Source: Parcubacteria group bacterium
GTDB lineage: Bacteria; Patescibacteriota; Patescibacteriia; UBA9934; GWF2-40-263
Direction: 5' to 3'
Assembly (NCBI GenBank): GCA_013204395.1
Contig: JABMNZ010000026.1
Coordinates: 13,421-77,420 of the forward strand
DNA length: 64,000 nt
The position numbers were made by a program, and so were the translations under genes. This document shows, piece by piece, positions 4,591 to 28,874 of this stretch; position 1 is the first letter of the stretch, and every line of letters begins with the position of its first letter. The notes under the pieces were generated by a model that did no database searches, was not told where the DNA came from, and saw only the letters and a list, made by a program, of their open reading frames with translations.

Positions 4591-5574
4591 ATGCAAGCAC
4601 TCGGCACGGTTGCCCAACTCATCAATCCCGAGTTCGTGGCCACAGAAGGTCTGTATGAGTTTCGGGAAGCTACGGCAGAAGACATTCCAGCGATTCGAGA
4701 GTTGCTGTTTGATTGGTACGGCCCCTCGTACCCTTACCCGGTCAGTGCCCTCGATCCCAAGGGGTACTACCCGGCGGCGATCGATCGGAGTACGGGCATG
4801 CTTGTCGGTTTTGCCAAAGCGGTTCCGTACAAGGGGTTTCCTTCTGTGTACGAGTTCGGTGGGCTGATCGTTGCCAAGTCTCACCGGGAGAAGAAGATCG
4901 CCAAGCATCTTACGCGGATGCGTGTCGATTGGGTTCTGTCGCTGGGTGGAGCCGCTGTGGTAAGCGAGCCCGTGTGCTATCTGAGTGGTTGTCCGAGCCA
5001 GGAGAATCTCATCAAGGCAGGTTTTCACCTGGTGGCTCTGCAGGTTGGGAAGTATCCCGACATCATGCACGACACACTTGGCTTGCAGCCCGAGAGTGTA
5101 CTCATGGCCGTTCGCTGGCTTCGTGGCAATTCCCGGCTGGGACATCGCAAGGTGTTCTTGCCTAGTTACTACCGCGGTGTGTTGCACACGTTCTTGCCCC
5201 GTTACCTGCACCAGCGGCCGTGGGACGAAACGTTTGAAGATGTGCCGATGCCCCCCGCCGTTCTCCACAAGGGGTTCACCACAGCAGGTGGAACAGGGGC
5301 AGAGTTCGCTGATGTTCCTGTGAATTGGCCCGAAGCTGAGGGGATCATTCACAGTCTTCGTCTGCAGGGATTCAGGATGTGCGGCATCCTTCCAGGCTTC
5401 GGCCGCCTGTCAGACGATCGACCTTACGACTACCTGCGCATGTACCGGTTGCCAGCAAGCTTCATCATCGGGTCAGAGTCTTTCGACTTTGACAAGGTGA
5501 ATGTTGTGCCGCAGCTGGCCGCACTCAAGCACTTTGCGAGCATGGAACTCCATGGGGACATTCCCATCGAGTAG
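4591..5574 (+). CDS. GNAT-fold acyltransferase-like protein, two-domain (~327 aa)
   Basis: GGAGGTG RBS 5 nt upstream; N-terminal GNAT-like core (EFGGLIVAKSHREKKIAKHL); high GC; tandem paralogue of next gene. Confidence 0.6.
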   Translation: MQALGTVAQLINPEFVATEGLYEFREATAEDIPAIRELLFDWYGPSYPYPVSALDPKGYYPAAIDRSTGMLVGFAKAVPYKGFPSVYEFGGLIVAKSHREKKIAKHLTRMRVDWVLSLGGAAVVSEPVCYLSGCPSQENLIKAGFHLVALQVGKYPDIMHDTLGLQPESVLMAVRWLRGNSRLGHRKVFLPSYYRGVLHTFLPRYLHQRPWDETFEDVPMPPAVLHKGFTTAGGTGAEFADVPVNWPEAEGIIHSLRLQGFRMCGILPGFGRLSDDRPYDYLRMYRLPASFIIGSESFDFDKVNVVPQLAALKHFASMELHGDIPIE

Positions 5575-5604
5575 AAACACAGACACACAGAAGACTTGGA
5601 GGGC

Positions 5605-6540
5605 ATGATGCAAGCAGAAATTGATCCAGAAGATCGTTCGAAGACCAGTGATGAACTTTATCTTCGTCCAGGGAGATCTGAAGATATTTCGGCGCTCGAG
5701 CAAATCTACCGTGAAATTTACGGAGAGATGTATCCCTACTTGCCGACCTTGGAGACCGTTTGTCCAAGCAAGGGTCACTTTCTCGTCGCTTTGATTGGGA
5801 AGGAAATCGTAGGCTGCGCTGCGGCCTACGAACAGACAAATCCTTTCCTCGTGGAGTGGGGGAGGCTCGTTGTCAGTGAGCGATTTCGTGGCAGGGGGAT
5901 CGCGAAGAAGTTTGGTCACGTACGTCGCCGCTTGCTCGCACAGGGCTCCATGAACATGGCACATTCTGAGTGCGTGTGTTACGGGAAGGCAAGCCAGCGG
6001 CTGTTGAGTGGTGTTGGCTTCACACACTGGGGCATCGAACCCCTCAAGCACCCAGGGCTCAAGCCAGATGTTTTGGGCACGCAGCCTGAGACAGTGGCAA
6101 TGAGTTTGCTCTGGGACGATGGGAAATTCGGTGGGCTGGGTACACGCTCCGTCTTCGTGCCAGAGGATTGGGTTGATGGCCTGCAACTCTTGGCTCCCAC
6201 AGATATTTTTGAACAAGCACGGCAGGTACGTGCAGGTTTCTGTGTTTCCTCATCGCAAGCACAGTACTATCACCCGCGCACCGATACGTCGACAGGAATC
6301 GAAGGTTCAACTCTGGTTGATGTCGATGTGAATCATGTCAGTGCCCTGAGTGTGATCGCTCAGCTGCGCGCGGAAGATTTCCGTCTGTGCGCGTTCATGC
6401 CTGGGGTGGTTGACCGTGAAGGTGGTATCGCCTCTGATCGTGTTCGGCTCTATCGATCTTCACCCGGTACTTACATCGACTGGAGCCTTATCCAGCTCGA
6501 ACCACAAGTCCACTCCTTCTGTGAGTGGATGCGTGCGTAA
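5605..6540 (+). CDS. GNAT-fold acyltransferase-like protein, paralogue of 4591..5574
   Basis: GGAGGG RBS; GNAT motif A RGRGIAKKFG; same length and shared motifs (PE[ST]V.M, RLYR, DW) with upstream gene. Confidence 0.6.
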   Translation: MMQAEIDPEDRSKTSDELYLRPGRSEDISALEQIYREIYGEMYPYLPTLETVCPSKGHFLVALIGKEIVGCAAAYEQTNPFLVEWGRLVVSERFRGRGIAKKFGHVRRRLLAQGSMNMAHSECVCYGKASQRLLSGVGFTHWGIEPLKHPGLKPDVLGTQPETVAMSLLWDDGKFGGLGTRSVFVPEDWVDGLQLLAPTDIFEQARQVRAGFCVSSSQAQYYHPRTDTSTGIEGSTLVDVDVNHVSALSVIAQLRAEDFRLCAFMPGVVDREGGIASDRVRLYRSSPGTYIDWSLIQLEPQVHSFCEWMRA

Positions 6541-6548
6541 CAAACGCA

Positions 6549-6949: not shown

Positions 6950-6978
6950 TTGACGTTTAGGGGGTTTTCTTCTATTCT
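6950..6978 (+). promoter_or_regulatory. sigma70-like promoter TTGACG-N17-TATTCT preceded by GC hairpin 6924..6948
   Basis: Consensus-like -35/-10 with 17-nt spacer ~40 nt upstream of ATG 7019. Confidence 0.5.
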
Positions 6979-7018
6979 CTGCCCTTGCTCTTCTCAATTG
7001 AACACGAAAGGAAGTGTT

Positions 7019-8599
7019 ATGGAAACAAAGTTGTTCCGAGCCATTCACCTGCTGGCTGTGATCAGTGTGGCTCAATATGCGGTCGTACGTGCTTACACGT
7101 GGGGGTACCTCGGTAGCACCCCGGAGATGTTGGATTTCATGATGTGGCTATGTATTGCATACATAGGCGTATTTGAGCCACTAGCCGGTGTATTGGATAG
7201 ACGTCATGAACGGATCCTGAACTCCTTGGAATACCAAGTTGGCCACTTTGCGGCGCGGATCCAGTTCAAGACGGCTGACATGGAAGACTGTTTCGTGGCC
7301 ATGATCACTCGCCAGGCAACCAAGCACGGAATCCATTCCAGTGGTGGGTGGGCCGCAACGATTGCAGAAATCGTTTCTCGTCACATCTCCCGATGGGGGC
7401 AAGTTGATGACATGGGAGGACTACATCTCCATACGCAGTTGGAGAGAAGTGGCATCCAATTTGACTTGGATGAGATAGATCGATTCGACACCACCCTCTT
7501 CCAGATAGTGGAACGTCACGCGTCCCCATTACCTTTGGGTGTGGATCCGCTGGGTCACCAATATCTACTTGCTCGCGCCTACCTAGCAGGTGCTCTCAAA
7601 GGACTTGCTGGGTTGACCAAAGAGCTCGGTGGAGACGAGTCGATTACTCGAAACGTGCGGCCTGAGGATTTCGCCCTAGCGATTGATCTCTACTGCATGG
7701 ATCCCAGAGTGACTGACATGACGATGCTGTGGACGATGGAAGGTGATGGGGAAGTCCCGGTTGGTGCCTATGACCTCTTCTGGGTCCTGGCACATTGTCT
7801 TTACATCGGCATCGATCCTAAGTCTCTCAGACGCTACCTCGGTTACCACGGCAGTTACAGCTTCCTGGCTTTGGAAGAGCTGCTTCTGCTCAAGGCCATG
7901 AACACGCGCGTCCTTCAAGAGCTCACGGACAGGCCGAACTCCTTGGACGGGGTCCCATACGAGGAGATCAACGCCCTCGTTTGCCGATGGGAAAGTTGTG
8001 GATATCCAGAGAGCTTGGCGGTGTTCCGACAGTTCCCGGACGATGCAGCGTACTACGCCCACGTCCAAGCGCAGGAGCACGGGCGGGAACAGTTGGCTCG
8101 TCAAGAAGTTGAGCGTCGGGCACAAGAGGCTCATGAACTCGCGGCTCGAAAGGCAGAAAGCGCGCCCAAGGGTCGCAAGCGTGGTCAGGGAAACGCTCCG
8201 GTTTCTGAGCCAGTGGATCTTGATCTTCAGGCTCTGTGCGATGCGCTTGTCGTTTCCACTTCGTTCGAACATCTCGATGGAACGATCGTTTCTGTGATCA
8301 TGGTGATGGGTCTGATGGCGACCGGGGATCGTCTGCCCGCTTGGCAGGATCGACCTTCCCGTACTCGCGGAAAGATCTGGGGCCAGATCCGCTCGGTGGT
8401 TTCTGGATACGATCAGCCTCGGCGGATGGTAGATGACACGGTCACTGCTCTCGTCCGAGAGAGGGTGATTGATTACACGGGTGGCAACTACCGTCTGCGC
8501 GAGCCAAACGACGCCTTGCGAACAAGGAGTCCCGACTCACACGCACTACTCATCAGTGCCAAGGGGCTCATCAGTCGAGCCAAGGCACTAGCAAGCTGA
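7019..8599 (+). CDS. hypothetical protein, member 1 of a 3-copy paralogous family with conserved C-terminal ~130-aa domain
   Basis: AAGGAAG RBS before ATG 7019; C-terminal block D..ALC..L.V…F..LDG……GL…G.RL……P.R…K.WGQ……GGNY.L..PN aligns with 8723..10252 and 27300..28874. Confidence 0.55.
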   Translation: METKLFRAIHLLAVISVAQYAVVRAYTWGYLGSTPEMLDFMMWLCIAYIGVFEPLAGVLDRRHERILNSLEYQVGHFAARIQFKTADMEDCFVAMITRQATKHGIHSSGGWAATIAEIVSRHISRWGQVDDMGGLHLHTQLERSGIQFDLDEIDRFDTTLFQIVERHASPLPLGVDPLGHQYLLARAYLAGALKGLAGLTKELGGDESITRNVRPEDFALAIDLYCMDPRVTDMTMLWTMEGDGEVPVGAYDLFWVLAHCLYIGIDPKSLRRYLGYHGSYSFLALEELLLLKAMNTRVLQELTDRPNSLDGVPYEEINALVCRWESCGYPESLAVFRQFPDDAAYYAHVQAQEHGREQLARQEVERRAQEAHELAARKAESAPKGRKRGQGNAPVSEPVDLDLQALCDALVVSTSFEHLDGTIVSVIMVMGLMATGDRLPAWQDRPSRTRGKIWGQIRSVVSGYDQPRRMVDDTVTALVRERVIDYTGGNYRLREPNDALRTRSPDSHALLISAKGLISRAKALAS

Positions 8600-8654: not shown

Positions 8655-8683
8655 TTGACAAAGAGGCCTTTTCCCCTTAATCT
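8655..8683 (+). promoter_or_regulatory. sigma70-like promoter TTGACA-N17-TAATCT
   Basis: Consensus -35, 17-nt spacer, ~40 nt upstream of ATG 8723. Confidence 0.5.
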
Positions 8684-8722
8684 CCCTCCTTCGCCTAGGA
8701 AGGCGATGAGAAAGGTTTCTTC

Positions 8723-10252
8723 ATGGGAAAGATGCGTGCCGTTAGGGGAAAGAAGTTCCGTCTGACCGTCCCCGGGCATGGGATGCCTGAAGAAGTGAGG
8801 TCCCTCACTCAAGGACCCGTGCTCGCAAGGTTGATGTCAACCGATTCTGCATCGGTAGTTCTGATCGATGAGCTGATCAAGTCCATGCGTTTGCTCTCAT
8901 CGGACGTCTCGTCTGTACGCGAAGCTCTGCGACGATTTGTGGAGTCTGAGCACAAGGCAGGTGAGGGTTTCGACAAGACACTCTGTCGAGTGATTGAGCA
9001 GCTATCTGAGCGCTGGACTGAGCATGGGATCAGATCCGGAATCAGGACCCTGATCTATCTGGAGAGGCACGGTTTTGCCTACGAGACACTGGGTGAACAC
9101 CTGGAGTGCTTGCGTGGTATGACGGACGTCATCATCATCGCGATCGAAGAGGGGGCACAGTTTCCCCACACCTTGGCTGGGGCTTTCCCCCTTCTTCTGC
9201 AAACGAGGGGAGAGGAGTTCCTCGTTTTGGCGATTCACATGTTCGTTCACGCACTCTCTGAGGAAGAGGGGATGGTGTGTCTGGACTACGCTCCCAGAGG
9301 ACGAAGGGTCTTGAGCATTCCTGTGGTACCCAGTGTGATGATGATGTACTGGAGAGACATGTTCGAGATCTTCAGTCCGGAGTTCGACAGAAAGAAGGCC
9401 ATTGGGCTCCCGACCACACCGTTTGACACAGGGAAACTTATCCCTGATGGGTGGAGGTGCTTCAAGCGCATTGGTGAGCTGGACCTCAATCCAGATGAAC
9501 AAAAGCGGGTCATCGATCTGGGCGCCATTCGTTTGGTTCAAGTTCTGAGGGATCGTGAGCTCAGTGTGCGGACCATGCGTTTGGCACTTTTGGCGACTGT
9601 CTCAAACACAGAACTTCAGAAGCTTCTGGACAATACTCCCGAGTACATCAGGACCGTGAAGGTCTGGGAAGCTCTGGCGTGTCTGTGCTCGCTTGGCGAA
9701 TTCCACACACTCGGAGGAACCCAGGATGCGTGGGAGACTCATGTCGCCAAGAAGGAATCTGACCGAATGCTCCGCGCAGAGCAGGTAAGGCAGAAAGCCG
9801 AGGAAGAAGCTCGTCTTCGACAAGAGCGTCAGGCTGCCAATGCTCCCAACCCACAAAAACGCGGAAGTCGCGGGTACGCTCCGGGCAAGCCTGCAGAAGT
9901 GGACTTCGAGGCCCTGTGCTCCGAGCTCGACGTCTGTACGCAGTTTCCTGGAATGGATGGTGACATCACACGCATCATCCTGGTGCACGGCTTGCTTCGC
10001 GACGGTGAGCGACTGGCTTCACTAGCAAGTCTGCCCGAGCGCAACGAGAAGAAGCTCTGGGGCCAGTGCAAGACATTCTTGGGCGGTGGCACATCACGTC
10101 GCGAGTTCAAGGGTGCTCTCGGGAAGCTCGTATCTGCTCATCTGGTTTCCTTCTCCGGAGGCAGCTACCAGCTTGGCAAACCAAACCCGCGCTTCCCTCA
10201 GGCAAACGCGGTGCTCACACAGCTCCGCGGCCTGGTGAACAAGTACAGCTGA
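8723..10252 (+). CDS. hypothetical protein, member 2 of the paralogous family
   Basis: Conserved C-terminal domain (…FEALCSELDVCTQFPGMDGD…GGSYQLGKPNPRFPQAN…); charged coiled-coil-like linker before it as in other copies. Confidence 0.6.
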   Translation: MGKMRAVRGKKFRLTVPGHGMPEEVRSLTQGPVLARLMSTDSASVVLIDELIKSMRLLSSDVSSVREALRRFVESEHKAGEGFDKTLCRVIEQLSERWTEHGIRSGIRTLIYLERHGFAYETLGEHLECLRGMTDVIIIAIEEGAQFPHTLAGAFPLLLQTRGEEFLVLAIHMFVHALSEEEGMVCLDYAPRGRRVLSIPVVPSVMMMYWRDMFEIFSPEFDRKKAIGLPTTPFDTGKLIPDGWRCFKRIGELDLNPDEQKRVIDLGAIRLVQVLRDRELSVRTMRLALLATVSNTELQKLLDNTPEYIRTVKVWEALACLCSLGEFHTLGGTQDAWETHVAKKESDRMLRAEQVRQKAEEEARLRQERQAANAPNPQKRGSRGYAPGKPAEVDFEALCSELDVCTQFPGMDGDITRIILVHGLLRDGERLASLASLPERNEKKLWGQCKTFLGGGTSRREFKGALGKLVSAHLVSFSGGSYQLGKPNPRFPQANAVLTQLRGLVNKYS

Positions 10253-10300: not shown

Positions 10301-10354
10301 AAGCTATCTGTGGATATCGCTTTACTTGACTAAAGTATTGTAAGCTGTTATCTT

Positions 10355-10654
10355 GTGGGCATGCGTATTGAAGATAAAAATACAGAGAGTCTTTTTCTCG
10401 CCATATTAAGTTTGCAAACCCTTGAAGAATCAAAGGCATTCTTTAGAGATTTACTCACGGAAAAAGAGATTGAGGAGTTCTCCAATCGTTGGAAAGCGGC
10501 TCGTATGCTTTCTGAGGGCATTCCCTATTCAAAGATTCAAACGGAAACAGGATTATCTTCACGGACGGTGGCTCGTATTTCCAAATGGCTCCAGTCTGGT
10601 AAGGATGGATATAAACTTATGATTAACCGAACACATCATCATGACGACTCCTAG
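10355..10654 (+). CDS. TrpR-like YerC/YecD family DNA-binding protein
   Basis: ~100 aa, …SNRW.AARMLSEG.PYS.I….GLSSRTVARISKWL… characteristic of YerC/YecD. Confidence 0.7.
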   Translation: MGMRIEDKNTESLFLAILSLQTLEESKAFFRDLLTEKEIEEFSNRWKAARMLSEGIPYSKIQTETGLSSRTVARISKWLQSGKDGYKLMINRTHHHDDS

Positions 10655-10724: not shown

Positions 10725-11870
10725 ATGAATGTTCGTGAACTAACAAAAAAACTCATCTCTCTTCAAAGTTTTGATGATGGAAGACTTTATGAAAAACCAA
10801 TGTCTGATTTTTTGGTCGCCTATGTAGAAAAGAATCTTCCATGGTTGAGTATTGATCTTCAGGAAGTGGAACCGAATCGTTTCAATGTCTATTTACGAGA
10901 TAGTTCTCCAACAAAACTTCTGGTTGTTGATCAGATTGATACGGTTGTGCCAGAGCAGGGTTGGGACGGGGAGGCACTGCTGCCTGTTGAAAGTGATGGA
11001 AGAATTTACGGTCTTGGATCAAGTGATTCAAAGGGGAACGTTGCTGCGTTTTTAAAAGCACTTGAGCGTTTCGGTGAAACAAAAGGTCTTGCCATCTTGC
11101 TTTACGTTGACGAGGAATATTGTTTCAAAGGCATGAAGTATTTTATTTCATCTTCGCTTGCTAAGAATATACAACCAGAGTTCGTCTTGTCGATCGATGG
11201 CAACGGTTCGGTTTTGGGAAGCGGTTGCCGCGGGTTGGTTGAGTTTGATATTCAGATTCGTTCTGAGTCGGGACACACGGCAAACCCAAAAACACCTGGG
11301 GCGCTTTTGCCTTACTTGACCGTTTTTCAAAAATTTCAAACATGGCTAAAGCAATACTCTGATTTGGAGCAAGGGGAGGCTACAGCACAGATTGCGAATT
11401 TACGAAGTGGTTTGATTGTTAACGAATCAGATGAAGGTTTCGTGTTCGGAAAAGAGGGTAACCGCCTTCCGAATTTCACAGAGGCGAAGATTGAAATTAG
11501 AACGACACCGACTCTCTCATGGAAAGAGATTGAAAGCTTCTGGAAGTCTGAGTTGGGTCGCTACGCTGATCTTGACGCAAGCCTAACAGGAATATTCGAT
11601 CTTGATGGATTCTCTACACCTCGTGAGAGATTGAAGCTTTTGGAGCAATCCGTTTTCGATTCCATTGGAAGTGTTTCTTACTTAGATCCATCGACTTTCG
11701 GTTACCTGGATGTGGCGATGTTGAAGACGGTTTTTCCAGATGCAAGTTTGTGTTCTTTTGGAATTGGCGAGCCGGGGGTCAATCATAAGCCAAACGAGTA
11801 TGTTCGTATCGATAGATTAGACGAGGGAGTATCTGTGTACTTGCAGATACTCAAGAAACTTCTCACCTAG
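10725..11870 (+). CDS. M20 family metallopeptidase/deacylase (ArgE/DapE-like)
   Basis: Length and motifs (LGSSDSKGN…; HTANP…) of M20 peptidase family; low GC. Confidence 0.6.
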   Translation: MNVRELTKKLISLQSFDDGRLYEKPMSDFLVAYVEKNLPWLSIDLQEVEPNRFNVYLRDSSPTKLLVVDQIDTVVPEQGWDGEALLPVESDGRIYGLGSSDSKGNVAAFLKALERFGETKGLAILLYVDEEYCFKGMKYFISSSLAKNIQPEFVLSIDGNGSVLGSGCRGLVEFDIQIRSESGHTANPKTPGALLPYLTVFQKFQTWLKQYSDLEQGEATAQIANLRSGLIVNESDEGFVFGKEGNRLPNFTEAKIEIRTTPTLSWKEIESFWKSELGRYADLDASLTGIFDLDGFSTPRERLKLLEQSVFDSIGSVSYLDPSTFGYLDVAMLKTVFPDASLCSFGIGEPGVNHKPNEYVRIDRLDEGVSVYLQILKKLLT

Positions 11871-11879
11871 GAGACAGAC

Positions 11880-12728
11880 ATGGAATCCGTTCTTTTGACT
11901 CAGGGCAGTTGGAAGCGTCAGCGAGAGATCGTCGACGCTCTGGTGCTCGCATACGCAACACAGTTCTGGTGCGGGACCTGGAGAGAGCTGCTCGCGATTC
12001 GTGACGCCGACGGTTGCATCGAACAACAGTTCGGCACCTTCGATCAATACGGCAGCATCTACCCGGAGACACAACAGCTTCTGGAGCTCGCTGGTATTGG
12101 AGAGGATGATCCAAATTGGCCCAACAGGCTTTGGGCCCTGGCCGAATCTGGAGAGCTGAGGACGGTGGATGGCCGACTGGTCACGCCGTACTGGTCGCTG
12201 GATAGTGCAAGGCAGGAACTCCTCAGGTTCGTTACGTCAACGGATTCGGATGGGTACGGAGGCGAACTGCTGGTTCTCGTTGAGAGATCACAGATCGTGG
12301 GCTTCACGGCATACACATGCCTTCGTGACGCGGACGGACGTCAGGTCGCGGACAAGCGATTTCCTGTGGAGCGTCTGCACATTCCGATCGACAGTCCAGA
12401 GGCTACACAAATGTGTCTGGGGGAGTACCTGAAGAGTCAGTACGGTGAGTCACTGACCCTTGGGATCTTTCTCGATCACGCCGTCTCAGAAGTGTATCGC
12501 GGACAACGTCTGGGAAGCCGTCTGTTCGACGAGCGAATCACCCGACTGTTGGAGTTGGGTGCTGAGGTGATTCTCGGAAGAACCATCCTGACGTCCCCCA
12601 GGCAGTACCGTGGCAACTACCTCGCCCGAGGTCTTCGGCCATTTGCCGCTGACGGCACTGACGCCTTCAGCCTGTCCAAGCACTACTTCTGCACAGAAGT
12701 TTCCGAGCTCACTCCCCGAGCGAGCTGA
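11880..12728 (+). CDS. GNAT family acetyltransferase with N-terminal extra domain
   Basis: TAGGAGA RBS; C-terminal GNAT core …VYRGQRLGSRLF…; abrupt switch to high GC 9 nt after upstream stop. Confidence 0.55.
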   Translation: MESVLLTQGSWKRQREIVDALVLAYATQFWCGTWRELLAIRDADGCIEQQFGTFDQYGSIYPETQQLLELAGIGEDDPNWPNRLWALAESGELRTVDGRLVTPYWSLDSARQELLRFVTSTDSDGYGGELLVLVERSQIVGFTAYTCLRDADGRQVADKRFPVERLHIPIDSPEATQMCLGEYLKSQYGESLTLGIFLDHAVSEVYRGQRLGSRLFDERITRLLELGAEVILGRTILTSPRQYRGNYLARGLRPFAADGTDAFSLSKHYFCTEVSELTPRAS

Positions 12729-12735: not shown

Positions 12736-12762
12736 CCCAAGCCACCTGGCTTGGGTTTTTTT
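12736..12762 (+). terminator. rho-independent terminator
   Basis: cccaagcc-acct-ggcttggg + T7. Confidence 0.8.
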
Positions 12763-12770
12763 GTTATACT
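12762..12770 (+). promoter_or_regulatory. extended -10 promoter TGtTATACT for dtd (near-leaderless)
   Basis: TGnTATACT 9 nt upstream of ATG 12780, directly abutting terminator T-run. Confidence 0.4.
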
Positions 12771-12779
12771 AGTGTCTAT

Positions 12780-13217
12780 ATGAAAGCTGTTGTTCAACGA
12801 GTAAAACGTGCGTCTGTTACGGTCGATGGGGAAGTGACAGGCTCGATCGATCAAGGGCTTTTGGTTTTTCTTGGGATCCATCAAGACGACACGGACGAGA
12901 TGATTGAAAAGATGGCTGGGAAGATCGCCAAGCTGAGAATTTTTGAAGATGAAGAAGGAAAGATGTCGCGATCTGTGGAAGATATCGGTGGAAGCGTTTT
13001 GATGGTTAGTCAGTTCACACTCTACGGAGATGTGCGTAAAGGCAATCGCCCAAGCTTTATAGAATCGGCTCGACCAGAAAAAGCCGAACCCATGTATGAA
13101 GCAGTAGTCGAGTCTATTAGAGGTCTGGGTCTTCCAGTCGAAACTGGGCGCTTCACAGCTATGATGGATGTGGAGTTAGTGAACGACGGGCCTGTAACGA
13201 TACTCATTGAACTCTAG
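12780..13217 (+). CDS. dtd: D-aminoacyl-tRNA deacylase
   Basis: MKAVVQRV…GLLVFLGI…SQFTLYGD… hallmark Dtd motifs, 145 aa. Confidence 0.85.
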
Positions 13218-15401: not shown

Positions 15402-15504
15402 GGCGTCTCCTTAGGTCCAGTTAAACGTGAGGGCATGATCAGAGATTTGATCGAGCTCTCGCGTAAAAGCTCGTGCGTACCACGAGCGGGTGGGGACCTG
15501 AGGG

Positions 15505-17707: not shown

Positions 17708-19156
17708 TCACGTGGGGAAGTAGAGTCCACGGATCTTGGCAGCGAGGTTGGTCTCTGGGAAGAACCCGAGGGTCGCCGCGTGGGTGCGCGAGAGGCGCAT
17801 GGAGACGCGGATCACGTCCTCCATGCGGACACGACCGTTGAGCAGGAGCTGCATCGGTCGCTTGCGGGTCGTCTCGATGTCGACGGTGACTTCGTCCTCT
17901 GCGCTCAAGCGGGCGAAGTTCCATCGTTGACCGCGGTAGGTGGTTCCTGCGCCTACGAGGATCATCTCTGGGGTACCGGCCGTCAGGGGCATGCCACCGT
18001 GAGAGCGAGCCCATCCTGTGGAACCCGCTGCTGTGGCGAGCATGAGGCCGTCGCCGGAGAGGCGATCGAAGACGAGGTTTCCGTTGAGGTACACCCGCAT
18101 GGCTCCGCTCTGTACGGATGTGCCATTGCTGACGGCGCGGATGAAAGCCTCGTTGAAGGCGAGCTCCTTGATCTGCCGACCATTGGAGTCTATAGCCGAG
18201 ACTTCCAGCAGCGGTTGCTGGTACAGGTGCACCACTCCGCGTTTCAGACGCGCTTCCAGCTCCGTAATGGTTCCGCCGTTGAGAAGGAAACCTACGGTGC
18301 CAGCGTTGAGTCCGATGGACGGGCGAGGGTCACCAGGGTTTTCTTGGACACAGTCCAGAAAGTATCCATCCCCACCGATGACGATCTTGTGGGTGAGGAG
18401 ACGATCGCTCAGGCCGTTCACTCGGTCCATCATGAGGCCAAGGGCTGTTTCCCGATCGCTGCGTTCAGGATCTGTGCTGCAAGCCACCATGACTTGCGCT
18501 CGGCCCTTCAGCGTGGCGCGGACCGGACCCAGGGCGACGCGGCTGGTGTACAGGCCGTACATGCACATGTAGGCCGCGACGCCCGGAGAGACGAGGTGCT
18601 CGAACTCTTCGTATAGGGCCGCGTTCTCGCGAATCGCCCTGCTGGAAGCTCCACGTGAGAGCCAGTTGTCGAGGAGCTCAGAGTTCGGTGGAAGATCCGC
18701 TTTGTCGAAGTGGACACCTGCTCGTGGAATCACGAGGAACTTGGCGTGGGCCCAGAGCCTCTGACCTTGGTGCCAGTTCTTCTGGATCTCACTTTCCTGG
18801 TCAGCGCCACCAACGATGAGATCACCACCGACCACCAGCCAGACATCATGCCCCTGACTCGTGAGTCGATCGAGTACACAAGCGGACCGTTCGTACTCGT
18901 CACGCTCAAGATCGCTGAGATCCAGGGTGATGCGCGAGTCGCGAGCCTCAAAGGCGATGCGGCACAGGTTGGCGCGATGCAAAGGACTGACGTCCTGTGT
19001 GCTTTCCTTGTCCGGTCGACCTCCACAAGGGATGATCAACAGACGGTCAGCTGAAGTCATGTGGTCCAGAATGATGTCCGCGATGCTCTCGTGATGACGT
19101 CCCGGGGGGTTGAAACTCCCTCCCAAGAAGAATGTACGTCCTTCGGGTTTCTTCAT
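17708..19156 (-). CDS. fusion protein: nicotinate/nicotinamide mononucleotide adenylyltransferase (N-term) + NAD kinase (C-term)
   Basis: N-term GGSFNPPGRHH (H/TxGH) and SSRAIRE (SxTxxR) nucleotidyltransferase motifs; C-term GGDGYFL, NEAFI, DGLMLATAAGSTGWARSHGG NAD-kinase motifs; GGAGGAG RBS before ATG 19156. Confidence 0.7.
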   Translation of the reverse strand: MKKPEGRTFFLGGSFNPPGRHHESIADIILDHMTSADRLLIIPCGGRPDKESTQDVSPLHRANLCRIAFEARDSRITLDLSDLERDEYERSACVLDRLTSQGHDVWLVVGGDLIVGGADQESEIQKNWHQGQRLWAHAKFLVIPRAGVHFDKADLPPNSELLDNWLSRGASSRAIRENAALYEEFEHLVSPGVAAYMCMYGLYTSRVALGPVRATLKGRAQVMVACSTDPERSDRETALGLMMDRVNGLSDRLLTHKIVIGGDGYFLDCVQENPGDPRPSIGLNAGTVGFLLNGGTITELEARLKRGVVHLYQQPLLEVSAIDSNGRQIKELAFNEAFIRAVSNGTSVQSGAMRVYLNGNLVFDRLSGDGLMLATAAGSTGWARSHGGMPLTAGTPEMILVGAGTTYRGQRWNFARLSAEDEVTVDIETTRKRPMQLLLNGRVRMEDVIRVSMRLSRTHAATLGFFPETNLAAKIRGLYFPT

Positions 19157-19208
19157 GATCTCCTCCAAGGGAATGAGTGAGTCTCCATGAACGATTGCTC
19201 CTGGAGTA

Positions 19209-19308: not shown

Positions 19309-20130
19309 TCAGCCCACGACGAACTGGCTGGTGTGGGAGAACTTGACGCCGGCGGCCTGCAGCCTAGCGAAGATGGCCAGACGATCTTCCTGAGAGATGA
19401 ACGCCAGGAAGCCGATGGAGTCCATGACCATGTACACCTCGATGCCGAAGCGCGAGAGGTTCAGAGCGGTCAGCATGATGCAGACTTCCAGGGCGTTGCC
19501 ACCGAGGAAGACCCGGCGAACCATCTGGGGTCGCGCGGCGATGCACTCCATCACACCGACCGGGTTGCCCACCGCATCCCAGATTCCGCTGTGGGAGTAG
19601 TGGAGGGGGTGCGTTCCCTTGTAGAAGATGTTGGAGAACAGTCTCGGGAAGATCGGGGTGATGAAGAGGGTCTCGAAGGTACCGATCAAGGCATGCTGCG
19701 CCCAGATGACCTGATCGCTTCCGGTGAACATCCGCGTCAGGCGCGCGTGATGGAGTAGGCTTCCCAAGGAGAACTGCGCGTAGGGCTGCAGGATGTGTTG
19801 CTCACCGATGCGCATCCAGCCTTGGATCAACTCCTCGGTGAGGAGGGTGTGGTTGGGGATGACGCCCGCCACTTCGGTGTAGGCATCGTGACCGTGAGCA
19901 CTGCCTGGGACATGCGCGTCGCACACGGCCAGGCAGTTCTCGCGTTCCATGAGGGTCATGACGTTGAGGCTGTTCAAGGCTGCCTCGAGAGACCCTTCCA
20001 CTGGCAGGGTGCCATCGAGACCAAAGGCGCCCGTGTCGTCGACACTCAGCCAGATGTCCTGGCCGGGGGTGATGTCTACTGGTCCTTTGACCAAGAGATG
20101 GTCTGGGGTAACGGAAAGGGCGGTGGGCAT
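19309..20130 (-). CDS. pncA: nicotinamidase/isochorismatase-family hydrolase
   Basis: N-term …WLSVDDTGAFGLDGTLPV… (D of triad) and …VFLGGNALEVCIMLTALN… catalytic Cys motif; AGGAG RBS. Confidence 0.7.
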   Translation of the reverse strand: MPTALSVTPDHLLVKGPVDITPGQDIWLSVDDTGAFGLDGTLPVEGSLEAALNSLNVMTLMERENCLAVCDAHVPGSAHGHDAYTEVAGVIPNHTLLTEELIQGWMRIGEQHILQPYAQFSLGSLLHHARLTRMFTGSDQVIWAQHALIGTFETLFITPIFPRLFSNIFYKGTHPLHYSHSGIWDAVGNPVGVMECIAARPQMVRRVFLGGNALEVCIMLTALNLSRFGIEVYMVMDSIGFLAFISQEDRLAIFARLQAAGVKFSHTSQFVVG

Positions 20131-20228
20131 TCAAGACTCCTGGGTGAAAGTACTTGCGGCGGTCGCAAGCGTAATCACACTATTTTTAGTGAAATTACGT
20201 CTGTGGCCACATCTCTCAACAAGGCGAG

Positions 20229-20257
20229 AGAATAGTTAATTTTGACGGTTTTGTCAA
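20229..20257 (-). promoter_or_regulatory. sigma70 promoter TTGACA-N17-TATTCT on minus strand, ~95 nt upstream of pncA
   Basis: Perfect -35, 17-nt spacer. Confidence 0.55.
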
Positions 20258-20530: not shown

Positions 20531-21226
20531 TTATACAACTTGTACGTAGACAAGTTTTCTTTCTTTGAATCGATAGAGGGCTGCTGGCCTATGGGCTTGG
20601 CCGGATCGTTTATGACCGGTGGCCTGGATCAGGTGGAGTTCATTAATTCGTTTTCTGAAGTTTCTTTTATCAAGATCTTGATCCATGACGATCTCGTATA
20701 CACGTTGGAGCTCTGTGAGAGTGAATTCTTTTGCAAGCAGACTCCAGGCGATGTTGGTGTATTGGATTTTTGTTTTTACGCGCTCCAATGTGGTCTGCAC
20801 GATCGTCTTGTGATCGTAAGCCAGGGGAGGGAGCTTGCTCACAGGCCACCACTTAACGTCCAGGTATTTTTCACTGGTCTTTAGTGAGGCATGTTCATCT
20901 GGAACAAGAGCGACATGGGCAATAGAAATGACTCGTCCTGCTGGGTCGCGGTCTGGTTCATCAAACGTCATAAGTTGCTCAAGGTATACCTGAGTGAGTC
21001 CGGTCGATTCTTTCAAGATTCTGCTCGCAGCCTGTTCGCTGGTCTCTTCTTCTTCAAGAAGCCCACCAGGTAATGCCCATTGCCCCTCAAACGGTTGCTT
21101 CTTCATTTGAATGAGCAAGACATGAAGTTCATCATCTTGAATAGAAAGAATGCACGTATCAACCGCGGCTTTAATATTCTGTGGTGATGAGTGATGCTTA
21201 ATCATATTGGTGTGTATTGTACACAA
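20531..21226 (-). CDS. nrtR: NrtR-type regulator: Nudix (ADP-ribose-binding) domain + C-terminal winged-helix
   Basis: Nudix box GQWALPGGLLEEEETSEQAASRILKESTG; C-terminal FTLTELQRVYEIVMDQDLDKRNFRKRINEL… resembles NrtR wHTH; low GC. Confidence 0.6.
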   Translation of the reverse strand: MCTIHTNMIKHHSSPQNIKAAVDTCILSIQDDELHVLLIQMKKQPFEGQWALPGGLLEEEETSEQAASRILKESTGLTQVYLEQLMTFDEPDRDPAGRVISIAHVALVPDEHASLKTSEKYLDVKWWPVSKLPPLAYDHKTIVQTTLERVKTKIQYTNIAWSLLAKEFTLTELQRVYEIVMDQDLDKRNFRKRINELHLIQATGHKRSGQAHRPAALYRFKERKLVYVQVV

Positions 21227-21273
21227 ACTATGGTGGATGTCAAGTCAAAAGAAAGACGCTATACTTTTGAGGT

Positions 21274-22996: not shown

Positions 22997-22997
22997 T

Positions 22998-23357: not shown

Positions 23358-23420
23358 GGCCTTTTCTGTTTGGAGTATCTCTGCTAACCTCTCTCGACAT
23401 GCTCAACGGGAGGTAGTGCT

Positions 23421-24281
23421 ATGTTCAAGAAGTTTCTGGGAATCATGACGGTCGTGATCTTTGCGATCGGAATGCTGATCGTGTCGATCCCCGAACTGCT
23501 CTGTCGCAGAATGCTGAATGCACTCAAACGTGCAGATGAAGACGTCCGAAGTCACACCGAACGTCGGTGGCAGGCTGTCTGGGCCAGACGGTACTGGTGG
23601 CTGATCAAGGCCATCATGGGCATGGAGATGACGCCGAAGTTTCTGGGTCCGCCCCAGACAACTGGTGGGCCGTACATTTACCTACTCAACCACCGATGTG
23701 TCCTGGATCACTTCCTTGGCCAAATGGTGATTGACGCTCAATTTGTTCACGACAGCTTTTGGGTGATCAAGGAAGCTATGGCGCGAGCTCCAGGAATGGG
23801 GCGATCCATGGCGACGGCCGGGTACGCGCTGGTCAAGCGTGGCGGTCAGGATCCTGAAGGGGACATTGAGCGCATCTGCGAGATGGCCAGGCGTGCCAAG
23901 CTCATCGGGGCGTCAGTGGTGATCTACGCAGAGGGAACGCGTTACGATTACCTGGAGCGGTCGCTCAGAGGACAGCGAAGCGACTTCGATCCCCATTTGG
24001 CCAACCCAAGGACAGCTGGCTTCAATGCCCTGTGTAGCGAGCTTCCAGATTACCGCGTGAAGGTGGTGTGTCTGGACTGGGCTGGCATGGAAGGGGGACG
24101 CACTCTCTGGGATGGCAGGGCCTTCGTTGGTCTTCATGGCAGTGTCCATGTCTGGGAAGAGGAGAATCCTGGAGCAGACGGCGCAGCCAACTTCCTACAC
24201 GCGATGTGGCAGCGCATGCACGACACCATGAGCGGCAAAGACGGACTGTCCTTGCGCGTGGTCAGCAACACAGGAGCCTGA
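23421..24281 (+). CDS. lysophospholipid (1-acyl-sn-glycerol-3-phosphate) acyltransferase family
   Basis: NHRCVLDH (HX4D) and YAEGTR (FPEGTR) motifs; GGGAGG RBS; high GC. Confidence 0.7.
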   Translation: MFKKFLGIMTVVIFAIGMLIVSIPELLCRRMLNALKRADEDVRSHTERRWQAVWARRYWWLIKAIMGMEMTPKFLGPPQTTGGPYIYLLNHRCVLDHFLGQMVIDAQFVHDSFWVIKEAMARAPGMGRSMATAGYALVKRGGQDPEGDIERICEMARRAKLIGASVVIYAEGTRYDYLERSLRGQRSDFDPHLANPRTAGFNALCSELPDYRVKVVCLDWAGMEGGRTLWDGRAFVGLHGSVHVWEEENPGADGAANFLHAMWQRMHDTMSGKDGLSLRVVSNTGA

Positions 24282-24321: not shown

Positions 24322-24330
24322 TGTTACACT
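24322..24330 (+). promoter_or_regulatory. extended -10 TGtTACACT, 6 nt before ATG 24337 (leaderless-type)
   Basis: Directly follows T7 run ending high-GC gene. Confidence 0.35.
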
Positions 24331-24336
24331 GGATTC

Positions 24337-24669
24337 ATGAGAGTCTTTTACTATAATGACCAATGTCCTTACTGTCGGAGCTGGGCTCGGTGGTGTGAGG
24401 CTAGGGTGGGGGAGTTCGTTGCGTTTAAACCGCTTGGCCCAACGGATTCAAAAACATCGCCGAAGTATATCGACGACGCTGGAACGATTTTTTTGGGCTC
24501 GCGTGGCGTGTTTGAGATGTTGTCTTTTTCAAAGCGTTGGCGATGGCTCAAGACACTGTATCGATTTGTTCCTGGGTTTGCCCCTGTGAGCGAGTGGCTA
24601 TTTGCCTATCTGTCCAAGTGCCCGGTATGTGCCAGTAAATTTACACGTTTAATTTTAAGATCTAAATAA
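24337..24669 (+). CDS. DCC-family thiol-disulfide oxidoreductase (DUF393)
   Basis: VFYYNDQCPYC…. Confidence 0.6.
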   Translation: MRVFYYNDQCPYCRSWARWCEARVGEFVAFKPLGPTDSKTSPKYIDDAGTIFLGSRGVFEMLSFSKRWRWLKTLYRFVPGFAPVSEWLFAYLSKCPVCASKFTRLILRSK

Positions 24670-26478: not shown

Positions 26479-26479
26479 G

Positions 26480-27208
26480 TCATGACTGGTCCAGCCAAGT
26501 CATGATGCGGTCGAGTGTTGGGCGAACTCTCTGGAAGTTCTCTGTGCAGATCAAGCTGTGGTCACCGGCGGTGCGCACGGTCTGAACGTCCTCGCCAGGG
26601 TAGGTGGCAGCAGAGACGAAGAAGTCGTTCTCTGGCACGATCGCCATCACTGGGCAAGGGAAAGGCTTTTGCCAGAGTCGAAGTGGTGGAAGAGCAAGCT
26701 GCTTCACGGCCTTGCAGGGTTCTCCATGCATGGCTCCCATGAGCTGCCGCTTGAAGGACGAGTCACCGTCTTCAGACGTTCCATTGAGCATCAGCGCGTC
26801 GAGCTGAGTTGGTGTGTCCAGTATCAGGTCGTGGCCGCGCAGGACTCTCCAGAGGGGCTTGAAGGCGATGGGGAGCGAATGTAGGAGGACCAGTATTCGG
26901 ATCCCGCAACGTTCTAGGCCGCTGATGAGTACTACCTTCTTGAAGAGGTTTGGACGCAGAGTCGCAACACCCCGAGCTGTCTGGGCTCCAGCGCTGTAGC
27001 AGATCGCGAAGGCCCCGTCTGGAACGTCTCGGAGCTTTGCTTCAGCATCGCTGACGTAGTCCTTGAGAGAGTGGCTACGGTAAGAGATCAGGATGATGTT
27101 CCAGTCCACGAAGTGACTGATCACGTGGCGGAACCACCAACGGACATACTTCTCGTTTCTGTTTCCCCAAGAGCCCGGAAAGAGCACTAGGTTTTGTCTG
27201 CCTCCCAT
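26480..27208 (-). CDS. alpha/beta-hydrolase fold serine hydrolase
   Basis: …ICYSAGA… nucleophile elbow; GGAGGA RBS; high GC. Confidence 0.5.
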   Translation of the reverse strand: MGGRQNLVLFPGSWGNRNEKYVRWWFRHVISHFVDWNIILISYRSHSLKDYVSDAEAKLRDVPDGAFAICYSAGAQTARGVATLRPNLFKKVVLISGLERCGIRILVLLHSLPIAFKPLWRVLRGHDLILDTPTQLDALMLNGTSEDGDSSFKRQLMGAMHGEPCKAVKQLALPPLRLWQKPFPCPVMAIVPENDFFVSAATYPGEDVQTVRTAGDHSLICTENFQRVRPTLDRIMTWLDQS

Positions 27209-27271
27209 GAATCCTCCGGAAAAAGGGTGACATGGGAGCGTAGGTAATTTTAGGGTTCACGTCAAGGAATA

Positions 27272-27301
27272 TAAAGAAAAATGAGACTCCGTATGAGTCT
27301 C
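27272..27301 (-). terminator. rho-independent terminator (minus) after paralogue 3
   Basis: gagactc-cgtat-gagtctc hairpin then U-run on minus strand. Confidence 0.65.
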
Positions 27302-28874
27302 ATGTCGAGTACTTTGCCACCAGGCCCCAGAGCTGCGAGAGCAGGGTGTTGGCCTTGGGGAACCGTGGATTTTTGCGGGCGAGTTGGTAGTTGCCGCCCG
27401 TGTAGCTGATCAGGTGGGCATCCACCAGTGATCGCATGGCTTTGACCAGCTGCCTTCGGCTGGTAAGTGACACGTGATCTTTCACCTGTCGCCACACCTT
27501 CTTGTCATCTCGCGATGGCAGGGAGTCTGCCGTTGCCAAACGCTCTCCAGTTTGCAGGAGCCCGTAGACAAGTACTGCGCTCACGAGATCTCCGTCCAGG
27601 TCCGGGAAGGACGCGCAAACGTTGAGCTCGGAGCAGAGTGCATCAAAATCTGCAGATGCTTGCTCGCCATCATCTTTGAAGTTGGGGTGATGGCGTTTGT
27701 TTCCGGTTGGTTTTTGTTCGACAGGACGAGTGGGTGGGGACGTGTTTGCATCGCCTGATGGGATTGCTTGCAGACGTGGCAAAACCGTTTCCGTTTTCAG
27801 GGCCTCTAGGGCTGCTTTCGCGGTCAGGTGATTGTTCCAGTCAGCAGCAGAGCCACCAATGTCCCAAAACTCCCTGAGCAGGCAGGGACGTCCGACTTGC
27901 TCCCATTGATCAACAAGGTGTCGTAGTAGAGCCTGGTCGTTAAAGGTATAACGGAGGAGATCTGGTTCCTGCAGGCAGAGCGTCAAACTCTCTTGCGTGA
28001 GATCTCCGCGCTCGATCATGAGAAGGGCCATGAGTCCACCCGTGAACGAGAGTTCCTCGATGACTTTGCGCAAGTCGACCCTTCTGAATCCACTCAGTCG
28101 CGCTGCTGTGAACAGCTCCCACAACCGAAGTGGACCGTAGATCTCTTCGTAGAACATGACCCTATCGCAGACGTCGCGAATCTCAGGGAACGAGAGAAAG
28201 AACTCAATGGCAAGTAGCAGTGCGTCAAGGTCCTGCGGGTCTGGAAGGACAGGAGGATTTTCACTGAGAATGATCCGCCGGTCTTTGGTCAAGGCCAGCA
28301 TGGCCGTTACGGCGATTAGGCGCTTCGCCTGCGGTCCGTAATTACTGTCCGATGTCTCGATGACGTCAAGCTTGTTTTTGCTCAGGTCACTAAGACGGTT
28401 CACGAAGCTTTGAAGGTTCCTTGTACTTGTGAACCTCAGACCAAACGTCTCTACGATGTGTAGAACGCTGAGTGTCCTGTCGAGGTCTTTGCCGAAGATG
28501 TCCGTAAGTGATGCCACAACGCTGTTCATCGTGGCCAGGTATCCACCACGCTTCATGGGGCCCACACTGAGCGTCATTCTCGTGAGTGCCGTCGTCAGAC
28601 ATTCAACTGAGCCGGGTTGGATTCCCTTGTCTTCAAGCCATTTGCGCCACGTGGAGGGGATGAGACGATCGTCATCCTTGATCATTCTCCATGCATGGCT
28701 AGAGGGAATGATGTCGATGTCCATTTCACGGCCAAGCGAGTGGAGTACACCATTACGACGCTGCCCCTTGTATCCGGGGATTTGTTCGAACTCTGCTGTA
28801 AGCCTGGGTTCGATGGTGAGACACTGGATGTAGCGGTATCCACGACTGGATCTGCCTTGCAGTTTCACGTGCAC
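27300..28874 (-). CDS. hypothetical protein, member 3 of the paralogous family
   Basis: AAGGAGGTG RBS; C-terminal …FDALCSELNVCASFPDLDGD…GGNYQLARKNPRFPKAN…. Confidence 0.6.
   Translation of the reverse strand: MHVKLQGRSSRGYRYIQCLTIEPRLTAEFEQIPGYKGQRRNGVLHSLGREMDIDIIPSSHAWRMIKDDDRLIPSTWRKWLEDKGIQPGSVECLTTALTRMTLSVGPMKRGGYLATMNSVVASLTDIFGKDLDRTLSVLHIVETFGLRFTSTRNLQSFVNRLSDLSKNKLDVIETSDSNYGPQAKRLIAVTAMLALTKDRRIILSENPPVLPDPQDLDALLLAIEFFLSFPEIRDVCDRVMFYEEIYGPLRLWELFTAARLSGFRRVDLRKVIEELSFTGGLMALLMIERGDLTQESLTLCLQEPDLLRYTFNDQALLRHLVDQWEQVGRPCLLREFWDIGGSAADWNNHLTAKAALEALKTETVLPRLQAIPSGDANTSPPTRPVEQKPTGNKRHHPNFKDDGEQASADFDALCSELNVCASFPDLDGDLVSAVLVYGLLQTGERLATADSLPSRDDKKVWRQVKDHVSLTSRRQLVKAMRSLVDAHLISYTGGNYQLARKNPRFPKANTLLSQLWGLVAKYST

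Follow-up and report, generated by a model that had tools for sequence, protein, structure and literature searches.

The 64,000-nucleotide stretch analyzed here (the window; positions 13,421 to 77,420 of contig JABMNZ010000026.1, from a Parcubacteria group bacterium) carries GC-rich genes, among them a cluster for salvage of nicotinamide adenine dinucleotide (NAD), interspersed with a backbone of translation and housekeeping genes, and the two groups differ in what precedes their start codons. The GC-rich genes are mostly led by Shine–Dalgarno (SD) sites of the GGAGG type, whereas the backbone genes show no SD enrichment and tend to have a T at position -1, denoted T(-1), close behind a promoter or a stop codon. 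These patterns probably reflect two evolutionarily stable architectures of translation start, both of them active.

The window sequence is part of the 98-kb Joint Genome Institute (JGI) metagenome contig 3300032736 Ga0335110_1431775 and was independently assembled from SRR28106091. Its fusA product, elongation factor G (EF-G), is 84% identical to that of the Candidatus Uhrbacteria metagenome-assembled genome contig JACPHT010000001.1 (GC 41.5%), with a shared gene order from murA to the S10 operon, and a NadE identical to that of the window is labelled "Parcubacteria group bacterium" in NCBI. The gene for uS5 (52062-52703) is followed directly by that for uL15 (52709-53155), with uL30 missing between them, and the absence of uL30 is a hallmark of the Candidate Phyla Radiation (CPR; PMC9297842). 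Judged by protein similarity and gene order, the window is part of the chromosome of an ultra-small bacterium of the Candidatus Uhrbacteria (Patescibacteria/CPR).

Our gene set comprised 96 calls on the window and its 10-kb contig flanks (79.5 kb), 20 of them high-GC and 76 backbone. Relatives and source contigs are referred to by locus label (L004-L007 and L087-L097), L005 holding the JGI gene calls and L004 the Logan calls. As the SD score we used the minimum duplex free energy (dG) of bases -20 to -1 against ACCUCCUUA, and a start was considered SD-like at a dG of -6 kcal/mol or lower. The genes and their start signals, in window coordinates, are as follows.

4580..5574, plus strand: SD-led GNAT-like gene, 327 amino acids (aa); SD AGGAGGTG at 4580-4587, 3 nucleotides (nt) before the ATG at 4591; dG -11.5, GC content at third codon positions (GC3) 0.66
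5598..6540, plus strand: SD-led GNAT gene, 310 aa; SD GGAGG at 5598-5602; dG -9.8
6950..8599, plus strand: paralogue 1, 526 aa, no Pfam domain; promoter TTGACG (6950-6955)-17-TATTCT (6973-6978), leader of about 40 nt, weak SD AAGGAAG at 7008-7014; the L092 orthologue has the same leader
8655..10252, plus strand: paralogue 2, 509 aa; promoter TTGACA (8655-8660)-17-TAATCT (8678-8683); weak AAAGG SD, dG -4.3
10346..10654, plus strand: yerC (Trp_repressor family), backbone; extended -10 box TGTTATCTT at 10346-10354, 6 nt before the ATG at 10361; no SD
11869..12728, plus strand: SD-led 282-aa gene, 9 nt past the M20 peptidase gene; SD AGGAG at 11869-11873; the L094 orthologue (56% identity) is likewise purine-led
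12762..13217, plus strand: dtd, backbone; TGTTATACT at 12762-12770, 9 nt before the ATG at 12780; T(-1), no SD
13371..15413, minus strand: nadE, 676 aa; SD TAAGGAG at 15407-15413
15505..16168, minus strand: Nudix-like gene, 216 aa; SD TAAGGAGGTGA at 16158-16168; dG -13.3
16262..17574, minus strand: pncB, encoding nicotinate phosphoribosyltransferase (NAPRT, NAPRTase); SD GGAGG at 17570-17574
17708..19166, minus strand: fusion of a nadD-like cytidylyltransferase and NAD kinase, 482 aa; SD GGAGGAG at 19160-19166
19309..20257, minus strand: 273-aa gene (pncA in the sequence-only reading; no Pfam match); SD AGGAG at 20137-20141; promoter TTGACA (20252-20257)-17-TATTCT (20229-20234), leader of about 98 nt
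20531..21243, minus strand: nrtR, backbone-type, heading the NAD cluster; promoter TTGACA (21238-21243)-16-TACAAT (21216-21221), 10 nt before the ATG; T(-1), no SD
23409..24281, plus strand: plsC-like acyltransferase gene; SD GGAGGT at 23409-23414
24322..24669, plus strand: backbone open reading frame (ORF) of 110 aa; TGTTACACT at 24322-24330, ending 6 nt before the ATG at 24337, so that the mRNA would be truly leaderless
26480..27265, minus strand: alpha/beta-hydrolase gene, 242 aa; SD GGAGG at 27213-27217; promoter TTGACG (27260-27265)-17-TACGCT (27237-27242)
27300..28944, minus strand: paralogue 3, 522 aa; SD AAGGAGGTG at 28872-28880; promoter TTGACG (28939-28944)-17-TAATCT (28916-28921)
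32156..33160, minus strand: ADP-ribosylglycohydrolase (ARH) gene; SD AAGGAGG at 33100-33106; promoter TTGACA (33155-33160)-17-TATGTT (33132-33137)
33193..34518, plus strand: murA, backbone; -10 box TATCCT at 33193-33198, 9 nt before the ATG at 33208; T(-1)
37099..40192, plus strand: rpsL-rpsG-fusA; no SD, T(-1) in all three
42709..54427, plus strand: tuf and the S10 and spc operons through secY; most starts -16 to +9 nt from the previous stop, no SD enrichment, T(-1) near-universal
54503..55137, plus strand: adk, backbone; TGCTATACT at 54503-54511, 8 nt before the ATG at 54520
57168..57597, plus strand: high-GC ORF of 139 aa, GC3 0.85; SD GGAG at 57168-57171, TTGACA-type promoter upstream
60466..60924, plus strand: high-GC ORF of 133 aa, GC3 0.79; promoter TTGACG at 60466-60471, SD AAGGAG at 60511-60516
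60989..61674, plus strand: HAD hydrolase gene, backbone; TGTTACACT at 60989-60997, 8 nt before the ATG at 61006

Start signals of the two gene classes

The median minimum dG was -9.2 kcal/mol for the high-GC genes (n = 20) and -1.5 kcal/mol for the backbone genes (n = 76; P = 2.7e-9, Mann–Whitney test), and SD-like scores were found at 16 of the 20 high-GC starts versus 8 of the 76 backbone starts (P = 4e-9, Fisher test). Random internal 20-mers reached the same threshold in 14% of cases within high-GC genes and in 16% within backbone genes; the high-GC starts are thus enriched (binomial P = 7e-11) and the backbone starts at chance level. Together with internal ATGs, these controls rule out composition as the cause of the SD signal. 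The two classes differ in mean GC (0.575 vs. 0.445) and GC3 (0.68 vs. 0.40), and the high-GC genes of the window are also higher at the first and second codon positions and richer in the GARP amino acids (glycine, alanine, arginine and proline). Within the genome, GC3 correlated with SD dG (Spearman -0.46, P = 3e-6); the proposal of the sequence-only reading that SD use tracks GC class therefore holds here.

The same reading had assigned a canonical SD to every high-GC gene. All the SD genes that it named were confirmed, with the reservation that the sites of two paralogues are weak (AAGGAAG before the start at 7019, dG -6.3, and the AAAGG before 8723). The high-GC genes lacking an SD are this latter paralogue 2, the gene remnant at 3868, a flank call at -1400..-549, which is probably a mis-called start, and recO, which is high-GC by composition and backbone-type by start. 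The statement that backbone genes have no purine-rich SD stood up, their 8 of 76 SD-like starts being what chance gives. Among the genes concerned, rpsL, fusA, tuf, rplC, rplB, secY, ndk, dtd, yerC and the M20 peptidase gene have a dG between +1.7 and -3.8, and the -6.2 of murA arises only from a G-run at about -20..-16, which is too distant from the start codon for murA to count as SD-led. SDs hidden further upstream were also considered: at -40..-16, backbone genes scored in 18% of cases against 21% in the control, none above chance. A crude caller-free measure of SD enrichment was noisy, its controls being inflated when the lowest value among several candidate starts is taken, but it still set Bacillus-type loci (0.9 versus 0) apart from CPR fusA loci (about 0.1 versus about 0.1).

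Backbone starts carry signals of another kind. T(-1) was present in 65 of the 76 backbone genes against a background of 19% (P = 3e-35), including 28 of 29 universally conserved genes, and C occupied this position in 14 of the 20 high-GC genes; the start codon was ATG in 73 of the 76. We found a TAnnnT motif ending 6-10 nt before the ATG in 17 of 36 operon-first backbone genes, compared with 4.8 +/- 2.0 in shuffled sequences (maximum 12 in 2000) and 0 of 17 high-GC genes. The most frequent distance from the -10 box to the ATG in backbone first genes was 8-9 nt, and many of the boxes have the extended form TGnTAnnnT (10346-10354, 12762-12770, 24322-24330, 54503-54511 and 60989-60997). These counts substantiate the earlier observation of extended -10 boxes just before the ATG of backbone genes, and the position of the boxes supports the suggestion that the first genes would be leaderless or near-leaderless. 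Backbone genes are also tightly packed, with a median same-strand gap of 5 nt (40 of 63 at most 12 nt), compared with 127 nt for the high-GC genes (2 of 16 at most 12 nt). Upstream adenines of the Bacteroidia type (-3, -6 and -11 to -14) were not seen in the backbone genes, where the frequency of A was 0.28-0.43 over -2 to -14 without a peak and that of T(-1) was 0.86.

Both classes have promoters of the form TTGACx-(16-18)-TAnnnT, and the difference lies in their position. In 7 backbone genes, 6-14 nt separate the end of the -10 box from the start codon. The distance is 27-98 nt in 9 high-GC genes, where the predicted promoters leave a leader long enough to hold an SD. The spacers of the NAD cluster contain hairpins followed by T-runs. 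Riboswitches were considered as the reason for the longer leaders, and no Rfam family reached the threshold.

Conservation of the start classes in relatives

The class of a gene follows its family. In five relatives, sites of the AAGGAG or GGAGG type precede the genes of the NAD cluster and further accessory genes, and ndk, dtd, lactB, comEC, nrtR, TrmB and the genes for the M20 peptidase and UDP-glucose dehydrogenase have no SD and a T at -1. The nadE gene was SD-led in six of six genomes and the NAPRT gene in five of five, with no SD in the orthologues of ndk (0 of 5), nrtR (0 of 4), lactB (0 of 4) and dtd (0 of 3); nrtR is SD-free in a Komeilibacteria locus as well. Pooled over the relatives, T(-1) occurred in 8 of 47 SD-led versus 42 of 52 non-SD genes (P = 1e-10). 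The SD spacing peaked at 4-7 nt (66 SD-led genes in six genomes), and in all six genomes the nadE leader has kept the SD core while diverging around it.

The classes can also be separated from composition. The backbone genes of L090 reach a GC of 0.56-0.62 and still have no SD, several SD-led genes of L087 are at backbone GC, and the split is seen without a GC contrast both in L095 (GC 0.64, NadE 40% identical) and in the Buchananbacteria locus L096; in the Komeilibacteria locus L097, the split is strong. As it persists in a GC-rich backbone and where GC contrast is lacking, GC is a correlate of the class and not its cause, and its retention in related genomes makes the split a stable trait of the lineage rather than a leftover of recent import.

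For a wider comparison, core starts were anchored by alignment to the conserved proteins of the window. In CPR loci (Uhrbacteria, Magasanikbacteria, Saccharibacteria and others), T(-1) was found at 47 of 53 core starts (89%) and an SD at 8%, as against 21 of 117 (18%) and 84%, respectively, in 20 non-CPR loci obtained with the same EF-G query. By these alignments, the start regime of the core genes is a CPR trait.

Origin of the GC-rich genes

The sequence-only reading described the GC-rich genes as a recently acquired island with donor-style ribosome-binding sites (RBSs) behind host-style promoters. The promoter part is correct, the TTGACx-17-TAnnnT type being common to both classes; the view of the SDs as relics of a recent import is not supported by synteny, synonymous divergence (dS) or the conservation of SDs in orthologues. 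Were the genes a recent gift of a GC-rich donor, their SDs would be unselected leftovers that the host ribosome may not even use, and several features are as one would then expect. The high-GC genes deviate in GC, at all codon positions, and in GARP content. They are also variable: the ARH gene is missing at the syntenic site of the relative L007, NadE is 73% identical where the backbone reaches 93-97%, and the NAPRTases of Uhrbacteria clusters that are syntenic in other respects fall into two xenologous types sharing 35-38% identity (window 16262-17563; L087, L088, L090, L092 and L095), type A being as similar to Vicinamibacteria (Acidobacteria) proteins as to those of other CPR (47-51%). One class member is decaying: the 63-aa high-GC ORF at 3868-4059 (with an ORF at 4226-4447; 3740-4374) is what is left of a gene that L092 preserves whole (202 aa; 18912-19520), and the internal loss of ~218 nt in the window copy shows this SD-led gene to be in decay here.

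Against these stands the placement of the genes. Five other Uhrbacteria (L087, L088, L090/L091, L092/L093 and L094) have the NAD cluster at the corresponding site and in the same order, with the shared neighbours dtd, M20, ndk, lactamase_B (lactB), comEC, UDP-glucose dehydrogenase, leuS and nrtR, and the GC-rich genes form more than 10 separate blocks with backbone genes in between. Uhrbacteria proteins are the closest homologues of NadE (58-73% identity) and the next drop to 40%; the nearest NAPRT homologues are likewise from Uhrbacteria, with more distant ones mixing other CPR and Acidobacteria in a continuum at 47-53%, and neither protein names a recent outside donor. No integrase or transposase was present among the precomputed Pfam matches of the window genes, and scanning gave no tRNA target. 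SDs were retained at 58-73% protein identity in leaders that had diverged, and also in the L087 genes of backbone GC; GC-rich relatives that could have served as donors show the same two classes, and SD-like 5-mers are avoided inside genes (see below).

Rates of change point the same way. The close relative L092 has the gene order of the window; its backbone proteins are 92-99% identical to those of the window and the high-GC ones mostly 70-86%, with 96% for the GNAT-like 327-aa protein. In this comparison, dS was 0.2-0.6 for high-GC genes (nadD 1.3, nadE 1.1) and 0.05-0.7 for backbone genes (ndk 1.5), and the ratio of nonsynonymous to synonymous divergence (dN/dS) was 0.10-0.36 and 0.03-0.17, respectively. 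The similar dS and the dN/dS of 0.10-0.36 indicate that the high-GC genes were co-inherited from the common ancestor and are expressed and constrained. To judge by these rates, they are under purifying selection and evolve faster than the backbone, with some alleles replaced. We therefore regard a recent island as unlikely; an ancient lateral origin of the GC-rich genes is possible, with no donor that can be named.

Gene content at the locus varies in other ways. Relative to the syntenic Uhrbacteria locus L007 (5573-5661), the interval from hyp118 to murA (29457-33094) holds additional genes in the window, namely ARH and a gene for an 887-aa protein of backbone GC, and relative to L007 (6947-7091), there are three small extra genes between murA and the M50 peptidase gene (34552-36256); the insertions thus involve both composition classes. 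The three high-GC paralogues without a Pfam domain (7019-8599, 8723-10252 and 27300-28868; 509-526 aa) are 28-40% identical and individually preceded by a TTGACx-17-TAnnnT promoter. The close relative differs in its content of these genes, its second copy having just 39% identity.

The NAD cluster itself contains further elements of note. A 33-nt element, AAACCTGAGCTC-N9-GAGACCAGATTT, occurs on the minus strand at 17616-17648 and 19209-19241, in the leaders of pncB and nadD::NAD kinase, and again upstream of NAPRT in L092 (6828-6860). Its outer arms are conserved and imperfectly palindromic and its inner stem shows compensatory changes (CTCGAG/CTCGAG, CTCAA/TTGAG and CTTGA/TCAAG); it matched no Rfam family and could be an operator or an RNA hairpin of an NAD regulon. 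An imperfect 12-4-12 palindrome, CGTAATTTCACTAAAAATAGTGTGATTACG, at 20170-20199 within the long leader that precedes the first high-GC gene for NAD salvage, just downstream of nrtR, is conserved in L092 (4286-4313) and is a candidate NrtR operator. The 482-aa ORF at 17708-19156 (minus strand) combines the nadD-like cytidylyltransferase with N- and C-terminal NAD kinase domains, and relatives carry either the fusion (473-482 aa) or a separate 201-aa nadD. Over about 15500-20250, the JGI annotation (L005) calls seven spurious plus-strand ORFs, and the Logan calls (L004) and Pfam put the genes on the minus strand; a gene caller with a single model is misled by mixed composition and mixed start signals.

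Two observations lie apart from the above. The public JGI and Logan contigs differ from the window by single bases at 16988 (A/G), 40812 (A/T) and 47264 (G/C), the last of which creates GGAGGAG inside rpsS and is a strain variant or an edit that leaves the conclusions unaffected. At the far end, two class II aminoacyl-tRNA synthetase genes (Asp/Asn/Lys type, tRNA-synt_2) at 63583-64938 and 66198-67601, in window numbering, the first running past the end of the window and the second wholly beyond it, lie 1.3 kb apart with a gene for a 417-aa protein of no known function between them.

Probable reading of the Shine–Dalgarno sites and proposed modes of initiation

If ribosomes expose the complementary 16S tail (the anti-SD), SD-like words should be costly inside genes. 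AGGAG and GGAGG were the two most depleted of all 1024 5-mers within coding sequence, as compared with synonymous-codon shuffles; when only backbone genes were counted, they ranked third and fifth. Their reverse complements did not share the depletion in the window (GGAGG z = -4.3 vs. CCTCC -0.8; AGGAG -4.8 vs. CTCCT -1.5), and the same-composition controls GGGAG, GAGGG, GGAGA and GGAAG were not depleted. This restriction to the coding strand argues for an active anti-SD. TATG was likewise depleted (z = -3.9 vs. CATA -1.0), as was the -35 word TTGAC (-4.5), and this avoidance fits the roles proposed for them as signals. We rejected the depletion of ATATG as proof of a UAUG signal, since ATAT/TATA and CATATG are generally avoided, which confounds it in part; the comparison of TATG with CATA is cleaner. 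The SD motifs of the high-GC genes reach TAAGGAGGTGA or AAGGAGGTGA, the exact complement of the canonical 16S tail. Together, these sequence patterns argue that Uhrbacteria and their relatives keep a working anti-SD.

The GGAGG motifs could instead be conserved for a role away from the 16S rRNA, such as protein or RNA binding or transcript stability, on ribosomes blind to SDs whose anti-SD is lost or sequestered. Loss of the anti-SD is reported for roughly half of Parcubacteria (PMC9297842), and Bacteroidia keep their anti-SD and sequester it (PMC7797042). Such a role leaves the extension of the motifs to AAGGAGGTGA and their canonical spacing of 4-7 nt unaccounted for, and an exposed anti-SD predicts just the strand-specific avoidance of AGGAG and GGAGG that we observed. 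The reported loss is mainly in the uL1-lacking subgroup of Parcubacteria. Uhrbacteria, we presume, do not belong to that subgroup. On balance, we rate a function other than 16S pairing as still less probable than a recent island.

Several points weigh against two architectures that are both in use. About half of Parcubacteria, mainly the uL1-lacking subgroup, are reported to have no CCTCCT anti-SD (PMC9297842), and no rRNA or tRNA gene, initiator tRNAfMet included, was found when the window, its two flanks and seven related loci were scanned with Rfam and ARAGORN. In pooled relatives, GGAGG, ATATG and TTGAC were again depleted and CCTCC even more so than GGAGG, which leaves the strand argument clean only for the window's own genome. 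The leader lengths are read from promoter-like motifs and not from mapped transcription starts, and the relatives' gene starts come from automatic callers that reward SD motifs, a bias mitigated by the agreement of orthologue lengths within 1-2%. Finally, the GC3 of SD-led genes exceeds that of their neighbours by 0.09-0.21 in six Uhrbacteria data sets (window, L087, L088, L090, L092 and L094). This excess holds whatever the GC3 of the backbone (0.42-0.67) and is not explained by a model of two start classes; possible sources are a mobile gene pool common to these genes or a difference in codon-use selection. An artefact of chimeric assembly, of caller start bias (callers favour SD starts, and the JGI caller erred in strand over the NAD cluster) or of chance GGAGG in GC-rich DNA is very improbable, given the same arrangement in the independent JGI and Logan assemblies, in other samples and in other genomes, the internal control of 14% against 80% at high-GC starts, and the anchoring of conserved starts by homology.

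The two-architecture reading can be put as follows. Class I, ~80% of the genes (ribosomal proteins, translation factors, cell-envelope and housekeeping functions), would initiate without an SD. Its operon-first genes would be transcribed from a sigma-70-type promoter with the -10 box ending 6-10 nt before the ATG, giving a leader of 0-3 nt, and its downstream genes, starting within about 10 nt of the previous stop or overlapping it, may be translated by termination-reinitiation coupling, for which 40 of the 63 backbone gaps provide the stop/start proximity. The U before the AUG probably pairs with A37 of the initiator tRNA, extending the start pairing to four bases. In Escherichia coli, compensatory tRNA mutations have shown that such U(-1):A37 quadruplet pairing raises initiation (PMC10018350), and the U(-1) effect had been reported earlier in the chloroplast (Esposito et al. 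2003, as cited in PMC10018350). Class II, ~20% of the genes, comprises NAD salvage, GNATs, the paralogue family without known function, PlsC, hydrolases and ARH. These genes are GC-richer, faster evolving, subject to more turnover and mostly separate units, with the same type of promoter 27-98 nt upstream; their leaders, with a GGAGG-type SD 4-7 nt before the start, would recruit the ribosome by SD:anti-SD pairing. As the class is inherited with the gene family, both in Uhrbacteria and in two or more further lineages of Parcubacteria, the SDs appear to be maintained by selection, and they would be read by a ribosome that exposes a CCUCC anti-SD.

The closest known kind is the mixed leaderless/SD genome. 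Group C of GeneMarkS-2 (Actinobacteria such as Mycobacterium tuberculosis, and Deinococcus-Thermus) likewise combines a Pribnow box just ahead of the start codon in many operon-first genes with an SD on others (PMC6028130). There, internal operon genes are modelled with an RBS, whereas the internal class I genes have none, and the distance from the -10 box to the start is 6-8 nt in M. tuberculosis and mostly 8-9 nt here, leaving room for U(-1). The description of group C contains no U(-1) rule and does not mention CPR (PMC6028130); in our data, the class follows gene family and composition and is conserved between genomes. Bacteroidia resemble the window in that most genes have no SD and a few, such as rpsU and prfB, have strong ones, the anti-SD being retained and SD mRNAs being translated by bS21-free ribosomes (PMC7797042, PMC9976891). 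Their signal is upstream adenines, whereas A is not enriched here and the signals are U(-1) and proximity to a promoter or stop; the SD-led share is about 3% in Bacteroides ovatus and about 20% here. Quadruplet pairing has a modest effect in E. coli (PMC10018350), whereas with U(-1) at 86-89% of class I and CPR core starts it would be a near-obligatory part of the start signal across the lineage. With genomic islands, the class II genes share the deviating GC, patchy content and xenologous NAPRT; they differ in being interleaved, syntenic and closest to homologues within the lineage. Our literature search found anti-SD loss in CPR described, in a study of rRNA and ribosomal proteins that already marks the initiation signals of this superphylum as atypical (PMC9297842), and no account of CPR mRNA start contexts, the subject of the present analysis.

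A more far-reaching and rather doubtful extension is that Patescibacteria operate two translation channels: a core channel free of the anti-SD, by UAUG quadruplet, leaderless initiation and reinitiation, and an SD-locked channel for a mobile, GC-rich accessory set, switchable through access to the 16S tail (by bS21 as in Flavobacterium, or by tail processing), with the GC3 offset marking a separate gene pool.

Much of bacterial diversity belongs to the CPR, nearly all of whose members are uncultured and whose ribosomes are stripped down, and their recognition of start codons is essentially undescribed. The two architectures would give a testable rule, in which core genes are read from U-AUG behind a promoter or stop codon and accessory genes from an SD, and would place natural paired controls for the contributions of SD, U(-1) and leader length within one cell. 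Gene callers built on a single signal mis-annotate such genomes, and the start class could serve to flag the accessory or mobile fraction of CPR genes.

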